DNA of 63,790 nt, filler included, from Collodictyon triciliatum (taxonomy: Eukaryota): assembly GCA_043381765.1 (NCBI GenBank). It is 7 parts of 7 records of this genome, joined end to end, with 100 filler letters (N's around TTAATTAATTAA, not from the genome) between each part and the next. Parts side by side here need not be neighbours in the genome. Positions count along the whole stretch, not along the records: positions 1 to 9,486 come from JBHJMP010002989.1; 6 more parts are not named here. One strand, given 5' to 3'. The first letter of the stretch is position 1; the number at the start of each line of letters is the position of its first letter. Position numbers and translations under genes: made by a program. The notes under the pieces are model-generated. The model made no database searches, had not been told where the DNA came from, and was given only the letters and a program-made list of their open reading frames with translations. Positions 1 to 19,170 of this stretch are shown here, piece by piece.

Positions 1-73
<73 letters not shown>
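1..73. repeat. (ATT)n microsatellite; similar tracts at ~47690-47806 and ~60099-60288
   Basis: Direct reading of the sequence. Confidence 0.95.
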
Positions 74-76
<3 letters not shown>

Positions 77-194
77 TTTCTCCCTTTCGTTTTATTTGTG
101 TCTCGAAGCCTTAGACGCGCTGTTCATTCCCTTTGTGCTTTCCTCTTCCTTTCAAGCGGCGATACATTCCACGAGAAGAAACAAAGCAGCTGCG

Positions 195-2072
195 ATGGGC
201 TCAGACGACCGAAGCAGCCAAACAAAGATGCTTGTCCTCCTCGTCCTCTGCATCGACCTTCTCTGCTCAGGCATTTACCTCCCGTTGTTGCCGCTGCTGG
301 CGAAGGAAACCTTCTCGGCTTCCGCGTCGACAGTCGGTGTCATTTTATCGGCTTACCCGGCTGCTCAGTTCCTCACTGCGCCGCTATTGGGTCGCTGGTC
401 AGACTTGTACAGCCGCAAACGGATTCTGATTGTTTGTCTATGCGGCATTGCGCTCAACTATGTCCTCCTTTCGCAGGCGACATCTGTCTACGTCTTAATT
501 GCTTCCAGGTGAGTGAGCCTTGCATATAAGCTTTGATTTGATCCACACAAAGAAAAAAGTATTACATAGAATAGTATTATATATGTGTGATGAGGTTTTT
601 TTATCCCCTCTTTTCTTCGTGTATGCTCCTTTTTTTTTTTTAATTTCAGTTTTGTATGGTTGGTCAGGGCGTTTGCTGGTGCGTTGGGGGCGAATGTGTC
701 CATCGCTCAGGCTTATTTGTCTGATTTGTCAAAGAAAGAAGACCGCACAAGCTCACTCTCCATGACTGGAGTCGCCTTTGCATTCGGATTCACAGTTGGC
801 CCGATTCTTGGAGTAACTTTAGTCTTATTTACTCTTCGTTTATTTCCTTTAATTTTTATTTATTTTTCCGTTCTATTTTTCTCTAAAAATCATTAAATTT
901 GTTACTTTCTTTCCCTTGAGTAAGGAAAGAAATGACCGGGATTGAAAATAATCAAATACTTTTTTGTCTTTCTTCAAATGCATAAAGTATTTAAGTATCT
1001 TTATCCAACTTAGGGGATGTTATCATCTAGTGGTGATTATCAAAAGCCGACCAATATTTCTTTGGTGCTATCCGTACTAAACATTATGATTGCATCATGG
1101 CTCCCGGATTCAAAACCGCAAACACAGCTGGATCAAAAAAATAAGGTCACATAATTTTCTGAAGTATATATTTATACTAAATTATTGGAAGAAAATCTAT
1201 TGCGTAATCAAATGTAAAAAAAAAAATTAACAAATTGCCTTTCAATTTATCTTATGTTCGTAACATAAAGGATTCAAACTTGGTGGAGGGTCTTCGAAGT
1301 GTCACGATTCGAAATTGTCTTTTTCTTCGACTTCTTTTTTCTCTTTCCTTCTATCTTTTCCGAAACTGCCTTCCTATTCTCTTATCATCAACATACCAAT
1401 TATCAGCAAAGCAAAGCGGATATGTTTTATCTTATGTCGGCCTTCTTGCCGGAGCTACGCAAGGTACTTGAACACAGTTCCTTTTCATAATTGATCTGTT
1501 GAATTGATATTTTTTGTTCGAATTTTCTCAAAGTCGTATTGGGCCGATTAAGTCACTTACACAAGCATAAATTTTTATCCATCGTAGGCGGGTTGATGAA
1601 AAGGCTTTCCAAAAAGTATTCTGACGAAGAGATTGTAAAAAAGTCTCTAATCCTTCTCAGTATTTCGCTGTTTTTATGGTCCGCGGCTCAGTCAACAGCC
1701 ACTCTGCTTATCATTCTTGTTCCGATATGCTTTACCATCGGCACAATCACCACATGCTCATCAAGTTATTTAACAAAAATAGCACCACCAACACAAGTAT
1801 GATTGAACGAAATCTCCTCTATCATAGTTGACCTTCAGTATGTATACATCTATATAGTTTTAATTCATCTACTTCCACACGTAGTCGGGCTGGGTTCTGG
1901 GATGGTGTGCATCTGTTGACAGTCTGGCAAAAATTGTAGCCCCGCTAGCAGGTGGAATTATGATCGAAGAATTGGGGTCTGCTTCGCCCGGGCTCATCGC
2001 CGGGCTTCTTTCTGCGCTTGCCCTACTCGTCGGCCTGCAAACGAAGACCAGTCAAAACTAAATCCAAAGTGA
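195..2072 (+). CDS. MFS transporter (DHA1/TetA-like, MFSD9/MFSD10-like), 6 exons
   Basis: Motif A 'LGRWSDLYSRKRIL', 'GANVSIAQAYLSD', 'GFTVGPILG'. Exons ~195-509, 668-813, 1014-1145, 1271-1463, 1589-1796, 1885-2072 join in frame via GT-AG introns. Confidence 0.9.
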
Positions 2073-2190
2073 AAGACTATCCCTTGCAATAGATTGAGAT
2101 AGTGCCAAAAGCACCGCATATGCGCTTTCAAAAGCCAATTACTGGCATCACCCATAGAGCTCCACGAATAAAATAAAAAAAGTTTCCCTA

Positions 2191-2336
2191 TCACACTTCT
2201 TATTGTTAAAACTAGAAGGAATATACCACCTTTCGACTGGTAAACCTGGTGCGCTAGTATCCATGGTCTCACCATTTTTTCACAAGGGTCGCGTAGTGGT
2301 GAAGGCTGCCAGGTGAGACCTGACAGCCTGTTTTTT
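2191..2336 (-). ncRNA. Putative Fanzor omegaRNA scaffold (boundaries approximate)
   Basis: Directly downstream of the Fanzor stop. 10-bp hairpin at 2304-2328; its loop region is complementary to 2265-2273; a second, GAAA-capped hairpin spans 2211-2257. Confidence 0.65.
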
Positions 2337-4235
2337 TTAAAAGAGATGTGTAAGCATATTTTGAAGGATTAAAAGAATTTTCTTGAATATATTTTTAGCG
2401 CTGATAAAGTCCCTTGCCATGAATATACTTTGTTTGGTTTCTGAGCGATTGCATTATTTACATATGAGGCATCTATACAACCTTTTTTTTAATTTCCTTT
2501 CGGTTTCATATATTCCAGTTCTTATTCGCGTTGCAACACATCTTGGAGGTTCTAAATTCGTCTATATTAACTGTTTCAAGACGTTTGGATAGTATTTTTC
2601 GTAATCCTCTTCCGATTGTTGGCATAAAATGCTTCATCTAGGTTTTTCTACTTCATTCTCCATACGCCAGTACAACATCCTTGCCAAATGTCTTTTCGAT
2701 TCGTTCCATAAACAATTGTTCACTTCTTTTTGTATTATCATACTGTCTCCATCTCATCTTTCGAAAAGTTGCTTGTTCATAAAATCTGGAAAATTCTACC
2801 TGGCATCTCGATTTCATAGATACATATTCTCGAATTTTTTCATAATCGAGCGTGCGTGAATTATATTTGCTCGGTTCTGTCTCTAAATCGATTAAAGATA
2901 CTCTTAGTGTCTCAAACTGCTGTTTCTCTTCAAAAGTTATGGCAACAAAAGAAACAGCACTTTGTAGACCTGTTGCCATGCATATCCCTGAATAATTGTA
3001 CTTTTCTTTTTCGTGCAAGAGAATTTTGTGATTTTTAAGAGATTTGCTATCATCTCTTGTTTGGTGTGCCGTGTAATGTAATTTCTTACCTATCTCATCC
3101 ACCATGTAAACCAAATTAAACTCGCCTGCGTCCACTCCAACTACATTTTTTTGTCGCTAATAAAGATAATCGCTCTTCGGAAAGTTCTATATAAACATGT
3201 ATTTGGATATTTTGATTTTATTGGATTTTGAATTTGAAATAGCTTTCTTTTCACACAATAATCACACCGCCGTCTGTTTTTATCATGTATTTAAAATTGT
3301 AGTCTCTTTGATGAAAGACCCTCTTCTTCATTTCAAAGAAATTATCCCATAGTGTCTCTTTGCATCATGATATATTCTTCAGTAATAATTGTTTTCCAGG
3401 CAATACTAATATATCTCTCAATCATGCAGTATCTAGAGTAATATGACATGGTATATTGGTAGCTCTTATAGGGATTGGTTGAAACTGTTTGGCTCTAGTG
3501 TCCTCAAAAATGCGACTCATGTAAATCGGACATGGAGTGTACATATTTGGATTGACCTTGACGTCATATTTGATACCATTTACAATATCGCTGGGAATGA
3601 CACGATTCAAATGCGTTATAATCCATTCTTTATATTGTTCCAGTATTTCGAGTTTCTTGTAGATGGCTTTTTTAACTTTCGTAACCCTGCCTTTTAATAG
3701 CTTCCGTAATATTCTCATATTTAGGAACTGTTTGATTTATAAAGCGCAGAAACCTCTTTACAAAATGCTCCCTTATGTTATTATGATAAGCTGTTAACAT
3801 TTGCTTCACCAAGTACGGTAATACATGAGACAGTTCAACCAATAGGAAAGCGTTCTTCTTGGGACAAAAGGAATCGAAAATCATTGAGATAAGAAGTCAT
3901 CGTGTCTTCTCTCATATATGGATGCTTTTAATCTTGCGAGTCTATCTTGTGAAGCTATTCCGACTGTCTTTAAAGCATATAAAAAAATTTCATCGGTTGC
4001 TGAGAGCTGTTGTGGTTTCAACATGTAACATCTTGCAAACATATAAGTGTCCGTAACCAAGTTATGACACAATAAAAACGTACCGTTGATTTTGTCATAG
4101 TCATCCGGATTCTTCACAATCGACTTGAGAGATGTTTTCACATTTCGATAGTCTAGTTTTACACACATTAGATTCTCAAACTCAAGACGTTTTCTTTTCT
4201 TCGTTTGAAAGTCTTATTTTTACTTTTTCCTTTAG
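2337..4235 (-). pseudogene. Fanzor1 (TnpB-related RNA-guided RuvC nuclease), disrupted by stops and frameshifts
   Basis: Stitched translation gives N-terminal 'VKTSLKSIVK', 'FQPIPIRATNIPCHITLDTA', 'YMIKTDG', RuvC-I 'NVVGVDAGEFNL' (D codon 3130-3132), 'LAYGE*SRKT*MKHFMPTIGRGLRKIL', RuvC-II 'NIDEFRTSKMCC' (E 2557-2559), Zn-finger CCxC...CxxC, RuvC-III 'MARDFISAKNI' (D 2409-2411), stop 2337-2339. No introns. Confidence 0.9.
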
Positions 4236-4936
4236 AAAACTACCAAGTTTTCGATTTTAATAAAACCTTAAGTCTATTAGTAAATTTGATAAAAATAATG
4301 AAAACAACTGCACAAAATCAATTATGTAAAATCAAGCATCTGCCGAGACTTTCAAAATGCGCATTGTGGCAAATAAACACAAAGTTTTTTTTACAAGTGA
4401 TTTGAGACAAAACGCTGAGAGCCCATTCGGCGAGTTCGAAAGGACAGCCGTATAGCCATTGCGACTGAAAGTCAACATATCGGCCACAAACAACATGATT
4501 ACCGCCACAAGTGGGGATAGTATGCTTTTTTGAAATGCATGTTTGGTGGCAGGTTTATAGGGTGGGTTCTGTCTGGGTCAACACAAGGGCTTCTTTGTCA
4601 TTTTTGAATTTTAATGATATTACACAAATGAAAAATAAAATATAAATTGATTATAGGAATAGAATGAGATTATGAAGTATTTTTAACCTTATTATATATA
4701 ATTAACATACTATTATTCAGCTTGTTTCTTCGATTCATCAAAGCTCCTGGTTTCGTCAATCCAGATTTAATTCGATGGTTGTCTGTGCAATAAATTGCTA
4801 TATATGGGTACACTTTTGTTGTATAAAAGGTGTTCTGCCTTGAAAGGGATAAAACCGAGTTTGTCACAACCTTTTTGACGAAGTTTATCCGTTTACAGGC
4901 CGAATGAGACCGAAGAGAAAGGAAGAAAGGAAAAAA

Positions 4937-5100
4937 ATAATCAAAGATCAAAGATCAAAGATCAAAAATCAAAAATCAAAAATCAAAAATCAAAAATCAA
5001 AAATCAAAAATCAAAAATCAAAAATCAAAAATCAAAAATCAAAAATCAAAAATCAAAAATCAATAATCAATAATCAATAATCAATAATCAATAATCAAAA
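4937..5100. repeat. 7-bp tandem repeat drifting ATCAAAG > ATCAAAA > ATCAATA
   Basis: Direct reading of the sequence. Confidence 0.9.
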
Positions 5101-5480
5101 ATATTAGCAATAATAGTAATGCAATAGTTCTAGCAATGCGATATCAATTCGTGTTCACAATAATATTCCACATTTAGATATTAAAACTCAATACTTGTGG
5201 TGCGATGTCAACTTTTATACAAAAATGTAAGCGGTTGTTTACACGAACAAAGTGGTACTTTATTTTAGTGTCCACCCCACATCGAACATTCGCTGCACGA
5301 ATCACAAGGAGCCGAGATAGCATAGCTTGCGCAAACATGATCGCAGTCTGAAGTACACAGAGGAATCTTTTCTCTCACGAGGAGTGAAGCCCAGCCTTGT
5401 TTTTCCTATGTGGATCGAGAGGTGCGCAAACTGACGAAAACTCGCATAGAACCAAAGAAAAAAAGAAAGAAAGAAAGGGA

Positions 5481-7356
5481 ATGGCCGAATCGCAAGCCTC
5501 TGTCTTTGGTTCGCTGGCTTCAAAAACTGTGTTGACCTCGGCCGCTTTGCAGTCCAACGGACTAGAGATGTTGTCCGGCTCGCTTCTCGTCACAAACCCG
5601 GGTAAGAGTTTTATCTTTCTCTTCCATTTTTCTTGTGTTTTTTTTCATTTTTTATTTACTATTTTCCTTACGCCAACTAATACATAACCCGCCAGCAAAG
5701 AATTCAAGTGCAACAATCCCTACTATTTGTCAATTATTTATTATCTGATTCGAATGATCCACCCCGCTTCATTTTCCACTCATGTTATCTTCCCTTCATT
5801 TACTATTTTCTCTCTGGAATGAGGTAGCTGCGCTTCCCAAAGACGCTCTTGACGTTCACGTCCTTTTGCCTTGCGAAACAGCACAGACAATCACACCCGA
5901 GCACTCTTCTGCTATTCTCGAGTCTCTAAGCCCATCTGGTACAGCACATTTCCTTCTTGTGGTCTCATGCAAGCAGAGTGCATTTACCGAGGTATATTTT
6001 TGGGGTGTATTTTTTTTTTTTTAAGAATGACCAAAAGTGCAAAACGAAACTAATTCAATGCCATCCATTTCTTGAGCCTAGGAATGTCAATTGTTCAACT
6101 CAACTTAATTATTCCTAGATGTTGACTCTGGCTGAACTTACCGTCCAATTGTTGGTGGCTGGATTTGTTGATACACGATTTGATGCGATTACACCAGAGA
6201 GCCTTCCAAGTGTTTTGCTTCGAGCTGTGCCCCAGGATGTGCAGGATGCCATTCAAAGCGGTGCGCTCAAATTCGTCCAGGTGGGATGTCACCCTATCTC
6301 AGCAAAGCATAACGGCAGAATAATGTCGCCACCTATGTATTAGTATTAACCTATCAATGGTGACAAGGATATCATTATTATTTAAATCCTTCGATAGCAT
6401 GTCACCTTCGATTTCAACCCTCACCACTTCAAAAATCTATGCACAATCCCCTTCTTTATGCTTTATGGGGAACTCGAGAGCCTTTTTTTTTTTTATTTTT
6501 TTTGAAAACTATTAAAGGAAAGATACATGATAGATAATTAATATGTTTACTGTCCATATAGGGCTCTGCTAAGAAACCTGATTGGGGTGCTGGAGCATCT
6601 GTTCCTCTTCCAAAGAAACAAGTCCCAGCTGGTAATAATCATCACTATTGGTCATTGTATGACATTTTATTCAACTAACATGCAAAATGTATCATGGATT
6701 GATTGTTTTCTTAGGAGCAAAAAATAAACATATATATTATATTCAAGCAGCAAAGAAATGGGCTCTCCCAGCTGATGACTCTGAACTGGTCGACGAAGAT
6801 AGTCTCCTGGATAAGGAGGACATGCTGAAGCCCACCGTTCCCGTAGCATGCGGTTTTTATAAATAACATATAATAAAACTTTCAACATTAAAACTCGGGC
6901 GTAGAAAGAATCATTCATACATCTCGTATCTACTCCTTCCTGCCAGCATTAAACGGACGAACCCCATCATCACTTCACTAAATATGTCTAGGAGAAAAAC
7001 CCGTACGTAAAGCCTGCAAGAACTGCACATGTGGCCTGGCAGAACAAGAGAAACAAACAGAGGAGAAAAAAGTTAGGCTTTCCGCCGAAGACTTACAAAA
7101 CGGCCCGAAATCCAGTTGTGGAAATGTACGAGCGTATTTATTATGTTTAAACCCCCAACCATGCTACCACGTTGTTCGAACCTGTTGCAATATTATGTTT
7201 GCTTTATATTTGTGTGGATATGACCTGTATGGACTTTGATAGTGTTCTCTGGGCGACGCATTCCGCTGCCCTGGATGTCCATATCTCGGCCTGCCCGCAT
7301 TCAAGCCTGGTGAGAAAGTCACACTGGCCGGCTCATTCCTCAGTGATGATGCATAG
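5481..7356 (+). CDS. CIAPIN1: Anamorsin / Dre2 cytosolic Fe-S assembly protein, 7 exons
   Basis: Spliced C-terminus '[20 protein letters not shown]' and '[31 protein letters not shown]', the diagnostic Dre2 Cys motifs. Confidence 0.95.
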
Positions 7357-7631
7357 ATAATCCCCAACCAGCGCATGTGCACAAACGAAATCATGACCAT
7401 AAATATCCCTCCCCCAAAGAAAAAAAAAGAAGGAAAACAATAACAATATCTAGTATAAATGGGTTGAATAAGATGACTTAGGGCACTATCTACTTACAAA
7501 AAAAAAAAAATCCGACTTATTTTATTTTATTCTCTTACGTAAAACACTGACTTTGCATTCAATTGTATGTGGTTAAAAAGAAGAGACCATAATTTAGAGA
7601 TTTTCAGGGAAACAAATGGCTGGGCTCTGAC

Positions 7632-9233
7632 TCAATCGGAAGAGTAATCAGCGATGTAGAAATGCATGATGAGAACACAACACAACGACATCGTAAAGAG
7701 AAGTGTCCGTTTCATCGGAGCCCAGTGCCCAAGCTTTTCTGGGTCCAGAAGCTGCTTGTAGAAAGAGTATCCCAACGAAATCACAACTCCCGACGCCTCA
7801 AAGAACAACTGGACAGCAACCTGCAGCAGACATTCACTGTAGCTGGATATCAGTTTGAATTGAGTTGAGCTGGGGATGAGTCGATGCAGGAAGAAAAGCA
7901 AAAAGGGAGCCAATACCAAAGAGTAGAGCTCAGATGTAATGTCATCCAGGATGCATCTTTCTCGAAAAACAATTGCATCTCTGACATAGTCGGCCACGTT
8001 CTCATCATCAGAACGAAGCTGTGCCTGTAGTGACGGCCTTCGAGCGTCTTCGCCTTGTATCTCACTCATTGGTATGATGGAGACAAGTCTCTCTCTGCCT
8101 CTACAGGTGAAGTAATCCAAGTACACGCGCTCACACAACAGGCTTAATCGGCACAGGCATTTCATCCTTATCTTGAAAGAGAAGCATAGGACGAATTCAA
8201 GCATGACATTTAGCATATTTGCAACTACAAACTCTACCGACAATGGCGTTTTTGATGCAACGTTAGAGATCAAAATTCTCCCAATAAACTGGATATAGTG
8301 ATTGCTCATTTTGTTGATAATCAGCCTTTTTTCCATACCCTCCGCAGGTAGTCCGAGAACTACTTTGTACTGAAACCATTTGGCGAGGCTGAAGCACACA
8401 GGAAAGATAATGAAACGGTACACTACTTGCATTAAGAAGGTAGCTTTTACATAGACCGGAAGAATATTGAAGAAAACAAAATTAATAAACATATAAAACC
8501 CTACGATGCCTTTAAAAATAGCTAAAGGTGAGCCGTCTTTGGTCAATTCGAAGTACTCCTGTTGAGTATCCGAGAGTACATCCAGTCTTGGGGTTTTCGA
8601 AATCAGAAAGAAACCAAAGCCCATAAATGACATTTCCATAGCATTGATGATATTAGAAGCGAAGGGAATGGAGCGGATGGACGGAGTCATCATGAAAATG
8701 ATATTTATAACGAAAGCCGGCGCAATCGCCGCCATCAATGCCATTCTAGAGAATTTGAGGCTGAATATGTGCACCATAGTAAGAGTAATAGATCCCCAGA
8801 AAAGAAACAGCAGCACGGCGTGAAGGACGTCGACGTAAAGAACGTCATGAATTCGGTGAAGCGTTTCAGGTGTCATTACCAGAGAGGGGAGGTAAAACAT
8901 TAGCGACGTTATTATGACAGCAGCTAGGGTCGGCAAGGTTTTTCCTATTACACGTAATTGGCAAAGAAAAGCCTCTTTGAAACATAATGAGAAACTCAAA
9001 CGACTTTCTCTTGCATTGCTGGTGTTATCCCCTGCACTGAATAACGAATCTCTTCTATCTATTTCTTGAACAACGCCTGCTCCTGTCTCTCTTGGGCTGG
9101 AAGCAACGGATTCACTCAAATTATATGGTGTCCTGGGCTGGTCAGAGCCTGGTATGATGATGGCGGGCTGTTCGTTTTGTGATGGCCCTATAAAGCCCGA
9201 CTCCATTGATGCGGTTTCGACTATGTCCATCAC
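7632..9233 (-). CDS. Uncharacterised multi-pass membrane protein (533 aa, intronless)
   Basis: Long uninterrupted ORF with a hydrophilic N-terminus and about 10 hydrophobic segments. Family not recognised. Confidence 0.75.
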   Translation of the reverse strand: MMDIVETASMESGFIGPSQNEQPAIIIPGSDQPRTPYNLSESVASSPRETGAGVVQEIDRRDSLFSAGDNTSNARESRLSFSLCFKEAFLCQLRVIGKTLPTLAAVIITSLMFYLPSLVMTPETLHRIHDVLYVDVLHAVLLFLFWGSITLTMVHIFSLKFSRMALMAAIAPAFVINIIFMMTPSIRSIPFASNIINAMEMSFMGFGFFLISKTPRLDVLSDTQQEYFELTKDGSPLAIFKGIVGFYMFINFVFFNILPVYVKATFLMQVVYRFIIFPVCFSLAKWFQYKVVLGLPAEGMEKRLIINKMSNHYIQFIGRILISNVASKTPLSVEFVVANMLNVMLEFVLCFSFKIRMKCLCRLSLLCERVYLDYFTCRGRERLVSIIPMSEIQGEDARRPSLQAQLRSDDENVADYVRDAIVFRERCILDDITSELYSLVLAPFLLFFLHRLIPSSTQFKLISSYSECLLQVAVQLFFEASGVVISLGYSFYKQLLDPEKLGHWAPMKRTLLFTMSLCCVLIMHFYIADYSSD

Positions 9234-9397
9234 TCTTGCAACCGAACTGACAAGATTAGTCTAAGTTATAGTCCATATTCATTTGAATAAATCGCTTTTT
9301 TTTATGTTTTATGTGCTTATGATATTTTATTTATTAGATTTTAATTAGTTTGTGCTGTTTTTTTTGTTTTTTGTTTTTTGTTTTTTGCTTTTTTTTT

Positions 9398-9486
<89 letters not shown>

Positions 9487-9586
9487 NNNNNNNNNNNNNN
9501 NNNNNNNNNNNNNNNNNNNNNNNNNNNNNNTTAATTAATTAANNNNNNNNNNNNNNNNNNNNNNNNNNNNNNNNNNNNNNNNNNNN
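9487..9586. other. Artificial contig linker (N-run TTAATTAATTAA N-run); also at ~19071, ~28652, ~38230, ~47807, ~57386
   Basis: Identical 12-mer with stops in all six frames embedded in N runs, 6 times, mostly flanked by low-complexity sequence. Confidence 0.98.
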
Positions 9587-17744: not shown

Positions 17745-19170
17745 CGCCCTGCGCCCTCTAATCACTCTTCAAGCCTCACATCGCACTGCCATTCGTCTAA
17801 TTGCTGTACTTTTGACTCCAACACGATCATAAACACATGATGTAAAAGCGGGAAAGGGCGTCCCATCATTGTTGTCATCAGTGCTCAGGCATACCATGCG
17901 CAGAATGTGTGATGGAATGTCAAACTACGTGCGCGGCTGCAATATAATAGCAAAATAGATGAAAACTGTGGCTGCGCGCGACTTCGGGCAATGTCATGTA
18001 TATTCCACTTTAGGATGATTGAATTCAAATATTCAAACTTTCAAACAGCATCGACGGTCTTTTCTCTGCCTTCCTGTCTCCTCTGCGGTCTTCTTCATTT
18101 CAAACCACATGGGAAACACTTACTCGTTGGGTGCAAACGAATAACAAAATACAAAGTCTCGCTGCTTCACGCTCTTTCTTTTTTCTTTACTTTTCTTTTC
18201 TTTTCTTTTCTCTTCTTTTCTTTTCATTTATCAGACAGTCAGAAATGATGAACACGAAAGCCAAAACGCTCTTTGTTTCGTCCAAGGAGTCATGACAGCA
18301 AAACAGCATCTCCATCATCCCAATTACCATTAGTTGATCAGTTCTGACGAGAGCGTTCTAGGATCGACAGACAATATTCCTTCCTCCGAGTGCTGCTTCG
18401 CCAAACAACTCAACCGGAGCTTCTCGTGCAGCCTCCTTCGCTGGGTTTCTTTTGTTTACTCCCAGTGTCCTGTTTATCCCGTGTAAGTAAGACATACTCG
18501 CGAAAGGAAAAATAAGGGTGCCATGCTTCCCGATCCCACACAAACAGACTACTGTGCGGTTTATCAGTGGTCTCCTTCTGGTTGTGTTATCATGCGACTC
18601 ATTCCTTTGTATTCACTCCGCAGAGACTTCTGGGCAGCCAAAACTCCCTTCTGAAGCCTTTTGTTAACTCATGAATTTACTTGCTGATCACATCTCTGGG
18701 CTTTCCCTCACATCAGGCAAATCAGACACGGCTCCCGTGAGTATAACATTAAAAGCAAAACTAAACAATAAGAAAACATGGAAAAATAAACGAAAACCCA
18801 AGCTAAAAAAACCAAGCTAAAAAAACCAAGCTAAAAAAACCAAGCTAAAAAACCAAGCTGAAAAACCAAGCTGAAAAACCAAGCTAAAAAATCAAGCAAA
18901 AAACAAGCAAAAAACAAAGCAAAAAACAAAGCAAAAAACAAAGCAAAAAACAAAGCAAAAAACAAAGCAAAAAACAAAGCAAAAAACAAAGCAAAAAAAC
19001 AAAGCAAAAAACAAAAAACAACAACAAAAAACAACAACAAAAAACAACAACAAAAAACAACAACAAAAAANNNNNNNNNNNNNNNNNNNNNNNNNNNNNN
19101 NNNNNNNNNNNNNNTTAATTAATTAANNNNNNNNNNNNNNNNNNNNNNNNNNNNNNNNNNNNNNNNNNNN

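Follow-up and report, generated by a model that had tools for sequence, protein, structure and literature searches.

The Fanzor1 nucleases with solved structures are SpuFz1 of Spizellomyces punctatus (PDB 8GKH, 9CEU-9CEZ), PpFz1 of Parasitella parasitica (9CF0-9CF3) and GtFz1 of Guillardia theta (9CER-9CET) (Saito et al. 2023, PMC10432273; Xu et al. 2024, PMC11423790). Fanzors have been described as using a guide RNA derived from the 3' end of their element, as recognizing a target adjacent to a motif and as cleaving it by means of a RuvC site (PMC10432273, PMC10530073); a rearranged RuvC site in Fanzors was described by Jiang et al. Like Fanzor1, Fanzor2 (ApmFz2, PDB 9B0L; PMC11832414) and prokaryotic TnpB (ISDra2, PDB 8H1J) carry the RuvC triad and, between RuvC-II and RuvC-III, a zinc ribbon, and they work by the RNA-guided mechanism of the superfamily, but they are much shorter and are without the large N-terminal half of Fanzor1. 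Here we analyse a stretch of DNA from Collodictyon triciliatum (assembly GCA_043381765.1; the window, i.e. the whole stretch, has 63,790 nucleotides, filler included) in which an initial annotation, made from the letters of the DNA, had proposed a broken Fanzor1 gene at 2337-4235. We conclude, at a probability of about 90%, that this locus is a Fanzor1 pseudogene left from a ~2-kb intronless insertion between an MFS transporter gene and a CIAPIN1/anamorsin gene.

The family to which the relic belongs has domain order and fold in common with the solved Fanzor1 nucleases over the full length, and the ~640 codons of the relic compare with SpuFz1, which is encoded in a ~2-kb single-ORF (open reading frame) locus (PMC10432273). 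The differences are equally clear: the relic is a pseudogene, it has a subfamily-specific disordered insert of ~33 residues, and neither inverted repeats like the 30-nt ones of Spu-1 elements nor a guide RNA was found at it. Further, the solved chains are only 18–20% identical to the model of P0167, an intact metagenome protein of 648 aa that is the closest intact relative of the relic.

The relic as a Fanzor1 gene

Exactly four minus-strand ORFs of at least 70 aa lie within 2337-4235 (Table 1), and together with shorter pieces they join into ~640 codons when the frames are followed in turn. The proposal that four ORF fragments join into a protein of ~600 aa thus stands as to the four ORFs but not as to the count, since the frame segments number at least seven and the codons ~640; similarly, the proposed span holds, but homology extends from ~4204 to ~2292, some 45 bases past its lower limit. 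In frameshift-aware alignments made with a custom script, relic DNA from 4201 to 2292 is colinear with P0167 residues 2-642 (61% identity, 378/623 positions), and from 4198 to 2256 with residues 2-627 of P0003, a more distant relative of 634 aa (46%, 269/585 positions), so that near the full length of these intact Fanzor1-type proteins is covered. A phmmer search of 1.84 billion proteins with P0001, the 217-residue read-through of the relic frame at 2506-3156 (X at two internal stops), returned 1520 proteins at E≤1e-3, 572 at ≤1e-10 and 17 at ≤1e-30, with full lengths typically of ~590–690 aa. A family profile built from 20 full-length relatives matches the three minus-strand frames of the relic with E-values of 5e-67, 3.3e-47 and 1.4e-11. 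Judged by these sequence comparisons, the match of the relic to the protein family is far beyond chance.

The solved structures settle which family this is, and we assign the relic to Fanzor1. Compared with PDB chains, the 20-relative profile matches PpFz1 at 5.7e-90, SpuFz1 at 8.2e-84 and GtFz1 at 1.4e-71, with the Fanzor1 chains aligning to profile positions 6-594 of 601 and thus covering both the N-terminal half and the RuvC core; the next match is LaTranC (E 1.6e-3), and no Fanzor2 or TnpB chain appears at E≤0.01. Even P0001 alone places three Fanzor1 chains first (E 6.4e-6, 1.2e-4 and 5e-4), followed by a topoisomerase at chance level (E 0.38) and no further rows. The structure prediction was made on P0167 (AlphaFold, 40-row alignment; pLDDT 84.8, pTM 0.83), and the best seven Foldseek matches of this model are all Fanzor1 (TMq 0.64-0.72, TMt 0.60-0.76), whereas TMq is 0.22 against the Fanzor2 protein ApmFz2 and 0.20 against ISDra2 TnpB. 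Considering that the RuvC triad and the zinc-ribbon layout are common to all these nucleases, and that there are weak matches to LaTranC and to Cas12, TnpB and Fanzor2 folds, a relic of some other TnpB-like nuclease (Fanzor2, prokaryotic TnpB or a Cas12 relative) had to be weighed. These weak matches reflect the shared core; Fanzor1 chains score ~70 or more orders of magnitude better by profile, cover the N-terminal half too, and give TM values of 0.64–0.76 against 0.20–0.33 for the others, and we regard such an origin as scarcely credible. Profile, fold and catalytic alignment therefore all agree on a Fanzor/TnpB nuclease of Fanzor1 type, as first proposed.

All three catalytic codons are intact in the relic, at exactly the coordinates proposed for the RuvC triad (Table 1). 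The Mg-binding residues of SpuFz1 are E541, D383, N385 and D606 (Saito et al., PMC10432273), which are positions 935, 777, 779 and 1000 of the MBP-fused chain 8gkh_P (offset 394), and the D/E/D of the relic align with D383, E541 and D606. The three columns are invariant in 20 relatives (alignment A1) and in 40 (alignment A2). At the position of SpuFz1 N385 the relic has Gly, the family consensus being DPG. Two outcomes had been named beforehand as able to overturn the assignment, a lack of alignment to Fanzor/TnpB RuvC profiles and D/E/D residues off the catalytic positions; on both points the result was favourable.

The zinc finger proposed between RuvC-II and RuvC-III (CCxC/CxxC) is recognizable but decayed, its first half reading CCNA and its second half C-K-stop-C; the second of the four zinc ligands is replaced by Ala (GCG 2527-2529), the near-invariant Cys columns of the 40-row alignment being C562, C565, C587 and C590. 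The 'YG.WSR..QMKHFMPT' motif is present as well, but its W and Q are stop codons in the DNA (Table 1). For the superfamily, a C-terminal motif D-X(125,275)-[TS]-[TS]-X-X-[C4 zinc finger]-X(5,50)-RD has been given (Bao and Jurka 2013, PMC3627910). The relic has it in decayed form: T-S (2545-2550) lies ~193 codons after the RuvC-I aspartate and is followed by K-M and then by the finger, which keeps three of its four ligand positions and has a stop between the last two cysteines, and R-D stands 12 codons past the last Cys.

Decay of the copy

The relic is a dead copy, as the initial annotation had also held; it is intronless and unable to make the nuclease. Compared with P0167 it has ~6 frameshifts, placed to within a few bases, and seven in-frame stops; compared with P0003 both counts come to seven, and their placement is less secure in a variable linker. 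The stops at 3422-3424, 3365-3367, 3251-3253, 2653-2655, 2638-2640 and 2454-2456 are recovered with both proteins. At the start-codon position of P0167, one codon before the alignment begins, the relic has ACG (Thr) and no ATG, although the basic patch KKRKR that follows in P0167 is there. We conclude that the protein cannot be made, given the ~6 frameshifts, the seven stops, the ACG at the start and the loss of one zinc ligand.

It could be argued that the gene is intact and merely appears broken through homopolymer assembly errors, unrecognized introns or a variant genetic code. Two of the frameshifts, near 3145 and 2490, fall within or next to A runs, some metagenome contigs (see below) are without a base at 3145, 3844 and 3925, and two of the stops, one TGA and one TAG, face W and Q, the amino acids for which they would stand in some ciliate codes. 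However, all three kinds of stop codon occur in frame, opposite C, D, E, W or Q or in inserts, so that no single reassignment fits, and six frameshifts are beyond any genetic code; moreover, two long ORFs at other places in the window, of 542 and 931 aa, stay open when the standard stops apply. Since homology runs straight across each break, introns do not explain the breaks either. An identical 151-nt contig from another data set (3899-4049) spans the frameshift near 3928, and this lesion is therefore not peculiar to the present assembly. Taken with the ACG at the start position and the replaced zinc ligand, these points make an intact gene very improbable, and we retain the pseudogene.

Between RuvC-I and RuvC-II the relic carries the insert mentioned above. 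It is absent from P0003, has the same length in P0002, is somewhat longer in P0167 and is 72% identical in the fragment P0114; because it is present in P0002 and P0167 and matched at 72% in P0114, we take it to be coding sequence and not an intron. Its counterpart in the P0167 model (416-438) is a disordered loop with pLDDT <50. A hairpin lies within the last codons of the relic (Table 1), and the surrounding 241 nt (2240-2480) showed no unusual folding (z -1.67; 13/200 shuffles as good).

Kin in freshwater metagenomes and giant viruses

Freshwater samples contain many diverged copies of the family of the relic, and some of these are better preserved. Of the sampled words of the relic, 6–12% are present in each of seven metagenome runs (freshwater, lake or wetland; seven studies), and four runs were aligned to 2000-4600 at ≥80% identity (X2 equals X3 in its figures, and the two are probably one data set). 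Run X1 gave 88 short contigs, of which 5 are at 99%+, 10 at 95–99%, 30 at 90–95% and 43 below 90%; the 39 contigs of X2 fall into the same classes as 2, 1, 9 and 27, and X5 yielded 3. As many as 10 different contigs cover a single relic position, and three match the window exactly (3899-4049, 2811-2961 and 2723-2873). Among the contigs listed, at least four lesions are absent from some (80–100% DNA identity): at 2456, A>C on the plus strand turns TAA into GAA, and there is one base fewer at 3844, 3925 and 3145.

Depth is zero at 2000-2173 in the aligned runs, a hint of the 3' limit of the family; upstream of the relic, 4349-4600 is also covered by diverged contigs (e.g. 4400-4555 with 8 differences; the alignment ended at 4600), and the repeated unit may extend beyond the gene on that side. 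The public fragments P0053, P0114 and P0071, 61–72% identical to the relic and themselves short or decayed, are by their sequences apparently pieces of further copies; P0053 (an NCBI record) goes on after MKHFM in the other frame of the relic. A scan of metagenome contigs with P0167 found one distant locus (21% identity). The expectation that this copy marks a family with better copies is partly borne out, in metagenomes, by the intact P0167 at 61% and by the contigs without the four lesions.

The nearest labelled relatives of the relic are the Fanzor1 proteins of giant-virus Tc1/mariner elements, which have the same length, are intronless like the relic and stand with it in a well-supported clade. 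When IMG/VR was scanned with the family alignment, relatives proved to be encoded by 485 of 497 candidate stretches, many of them on GVMAG contigs that reach 289 kb; the Atlas (ESM) clusters nearest P0167 carry DUF8286 (PF26935) and consist to 92–100% of Viruses, mostly Nucleocytoviricota; and P0003, 46% identical to the relic, is 88% identical to the viral locus L001. We built a FastTree of 156 rows (the relic with X at its breaks, proteins of 520–800 aa and 71 non-duplicate viral ORFs), rooted on two distant rows. The relic and P0167 pair with support 100, within a 13-row clade (98) that holds L001, L004 and L005, itself inside a 94-row clade (100) with the 71 viral rows. Because the viral rows were picked as the best matches to P0003 and the other rows are unlabelled, the tree shows kinship and not the direction of transfer.

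In L001 the Fanzor1 gene (5001-6905) is part of a 3.3-kb unit (3631-6952) that is common to L003 at 74%, has 33-nt inverted ends, carries a divergently oriented DDE_3/HTH_28 transposase (3638-4678) and is surrounded by genes for ribonucleotide reductase, HSP70 and DUF5755. Such a 3.3-kb element with 33-nt inverted ends, its transposase divergent from an intact Fanzor1, is present in L001, L002, L003 and L005, and a relative of the L001 transposase occurs in 24/81 viral loci. These elements have the mariner-type arrangement of Fanzor1 described for PGv-1 and kin (Bao and Jurka 2013, PMC3627910). A conserved scaffold, present where the Fanzor1 genes of 64 viral loci end at 3' (alignment A4), comprises ~100 nt up to and including TTGATTTTAC, with covariation in three helices (91.6% of cells paired; 108 cells changed on both sides vs 28.8 in shuffles), which is probably a guide-RNA scaffold. 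In contrast to these intact copies the relic is decayed, and neither the 33-nt inverted ends, nor the transposase, nor the covarying 3' scaffold is detectable at it.

Considering these affinities, we asked how far the relic might be the remnant of an integrated giant-virus fragment, i.e. an endogenous viral element, and not of a transposon resident in the cellular genome. The viral matches in IMG/VR, the Atlas clusters and the place of the relic and P0167 within the 94-row clade all speak for it, as do the intronless state of the relic and an MFS neighbour that is in pieces. Against this, cellular genes lie on both sides (MFS at ~230 bases, CIAPIN1 at ~2.8 kb); the flank ORFs scanned by Pfam matched cellular families or none; neither a second Fanzor piece nor a transposase remnant was found; and the family is multi-copy and decaying, as cellular transposon families are. 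Nor was the subfamily of the relic found in viral contigs: searches with exact P0167 and P0001 peptides were negative, the FRKMRWRQY signature had 0 matches in IMG/VR, and the best viral identity to P0167 is 44–47%, all of them weak negatives, since each scan needs exact words and the alignment A2 scan relied on a peptide pattern not matched even by P0167. We consider a viral fragment improbable and favour an insertion resident in the cellular genome.

Setting of the relic and its meaning

The relic lies in piece 1 of the window (1-9486), tail to tail with the last coding piece of the MFS transporter gene, whose end (2061) is ~230 bases from the relic 3' end; the CIAPIN1/anamorsin gene lies on the opposite side, and both neighbours are cellular genes. 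The window is made up of seven pieces, ordered from longest to shortest (9486, 9484, 9481 bases and so on) and joined by N44-TTAATTAATTAA-N44 spacers; with their simple-repeat ends, they resemble size-sorted short contigs of a fragmented assembly, and piece 1 begins in an (ATT)n run and finishes in a T run. Short-period repeats like the microsatellite upstream of the relic are common across the window. The nearest Atlas clusters of the 542-aa ORF are eukaryotic proteins without a named family.

Table 1. Positions of the relic, its parts and lesions, and other features of the window
Feature	Position	Strand	Remarks
Fanzor1 pseudogene	2292..4204	-	whole homologous span; ~640 codons, at least 7 frame segments, no introns
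ORF, 110 aa	3881-4213	-	
ORF, 74 aa	3672-3896	-	
ORF, 104 aa	3422-3736	-	
ORF, 167 aa	2653-3156	-	
ACG (Thr) at P0167 start-codon position	4202..4204	-	codon before alignment start (residue 2 = 4201); no ATG there
RuvC-I aspartate codon GAC	3130-3132	-	in NVVGVDAGEFN; opposite SpuFz1 D383; A1 D372
Subfamily insert, ~33 codons	2896..2994	-	between RuvC-I and RuvC-II; coding, not intron
RuvC-II glutamate codon GAA	2557-2559	-	in TVNIDEFRTSK; opposite SpuFz1 E541; A1 E530
Decayed zinc finger	2451..2538	-	C-C-N-A then C-L-I-C-K-stop-C; two frameshifts and TAA 2454-2456 inside
RuvC-III aspartate codon GAC	2409-2411	-	in IFMARDFISAK; opposite P0167 D604, A1 D581; via profile SpuFz1 D606
Hairpin, 12-bp stem, 3-nt loop	2303..2329	-	within last codons of relic
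Frameshifts, one surplus base each	near 3928, 3849, 3689, 3145	-	3145 in A run
Frameshifts, two surplus bases each	near 2522, 2490	-	
In-frame stops TGA	3422-3424, 3365-3367, 3251-3253	-	
In-frame stop TAA	3218-3220	-	
In-frame stop TGA	2653-2655	-	opposite W
In-frame stop TAG	2638-2640	-	opposite Q
In-frame stop TAA	2454-2456	-	opposite E
Further TAA	2337-2339	-	close to natural end
MFS transporter gene, MFS_1 matches (Pfam)	201-512, 594-896, 1885-2058	+	three separate ORF pieces
MFS transporter gene, last coding piece	1885..2061	+	tail to tail with relic
Microsatellite AATCAAA, 7-base unit, 23 copies	4939-5102		upstream of relic
CIAPIN1 match (Pfam)	6982-7239		~2.8 kb from relic, opposite side to MFS gene
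Membrane-protein ORF, 542 aa	7632-9260	-	uninterrupted; no Pfam family
Spacers	9487-9586; also at 19071, 28652, 38230, 47807, 57386		joins between seven pieces
ORF, 931 aa	39296-42091	-	uninterrupted; WD40 propeller repeats and C-terminal Sel1 repeats; another piece

Several results weigh against the account of the locus as a Fanzor1 pseudogene left by an insertion. Pfam gave nothing meaningful on eight single relic fragments and nothing on P0001, and Cas12f1-like_TNB (PF07282) reached its cut-off in only two of eight full-length relatives, was weaker in four and absent in two; PF26935 is precomputed for 9/9 longer relatives but produced no hit in our Pfam scans. No second copy was matched in the whole window (blastn of 2001-4700; tblastn of P0003), and the best trace of a second Fanzor fragment upstream, at 4150-6200, has E 0.096; the multi-copy metagenome signal could come partly from several organisms or strains and not from one genome. 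Around the relic, inverted or direct terminal repeats and target duplications were sought and only low-complexity or chance pairs found, and the viral 33-nt inverted ends have no match there. For a DDE_3 transposase in piece 1, tblastn gave a best E of 0.37 and a profile of 18 transposases a best E of 2.4. Rfam had 0 matches at E≤1 on 1-9486, and in the same piece a covariance model of the guide-RNA scaffold (R1), built from 64 giant-virus relatives, gave a best E of 0.068 at 884-967 and, at the relic 3' end, of 2 at 2346-2386. The mobile-element and guide-RNA parts of the account are thus ones that we infer from relatives only.

The absence of ends and transposase lowers the claim of a complete element and not that of a Fanzor1 gene. 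The element ends may have decayed, and solo Fanzor1 elements are known (PMC3627910); the guide scaffold of the relic may likewise be too diverged or too decayed for model R1. A resemblance of the relic 3' end to the viral scaffold, drawn by eye, was dropped when the covariance model gave it no support. An exact TTGATTTTACAT, the invariant motif of the viral scaffold, is present on the minus strand at ~4325-4336, ~120 bases upstream of the relic start; model R1 on 4322-4394 around it reached only E 0.28, and its occurrence may be due to chance.

By homology with the characterized Fanzor1 enzymes, we infer that the ancestral protein would have bound a guide RNA (omega RNA), the transcript of the 3' end of the element that carried its gene, that the guide-bound protein would have found guide-pairing DNA beside a short motif, and that the RuvC site formed by the D, E and D at 3130-3132, 2557-2559 and 2409-2411 would have cut that DNA. 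PMC10530073 discusses a function in the maintenance or spread of the element, of the kind proposed for TnpB.

Tentatively, and at well below even odds, we suggest that the relic and P0167 may represent a cell-resident Fanzor1 lineage, marked by the insert of ~33 residues (longer in P0167) and by FRKMRWRQY, which would have split from the mariner-borne Fanzor1 of giant viruses by virus–host transfer and, lacking its own transposase, would have multiplied in a freshwater eukaryote, with working members persisting in nature.

Finally, the relic is a lone, decayed copy from a known family that is catalogued in thousands, and its giant-virus kinship follows a published pattern: Fanzor1 genes, the decay of such genes and the mixing of giant-virus and eukaryotic members have been described since 2013 (PMC3627910) and 2023 (PMC10432273, PMC10530073). 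A dead Fanzor1 copy by itself does nothing and matters little. As a marker, it shows that the host eukaryote once carried a Fanzor1 element, and it adds one more case for tracing the movement of these nucleases between hosts and giant viruses. What value remains lies mainly in drawing attention to the intact and compact relative P0167 (648 aa), of an undescribed subfamily, as a candidate RNA-guided nuclease.

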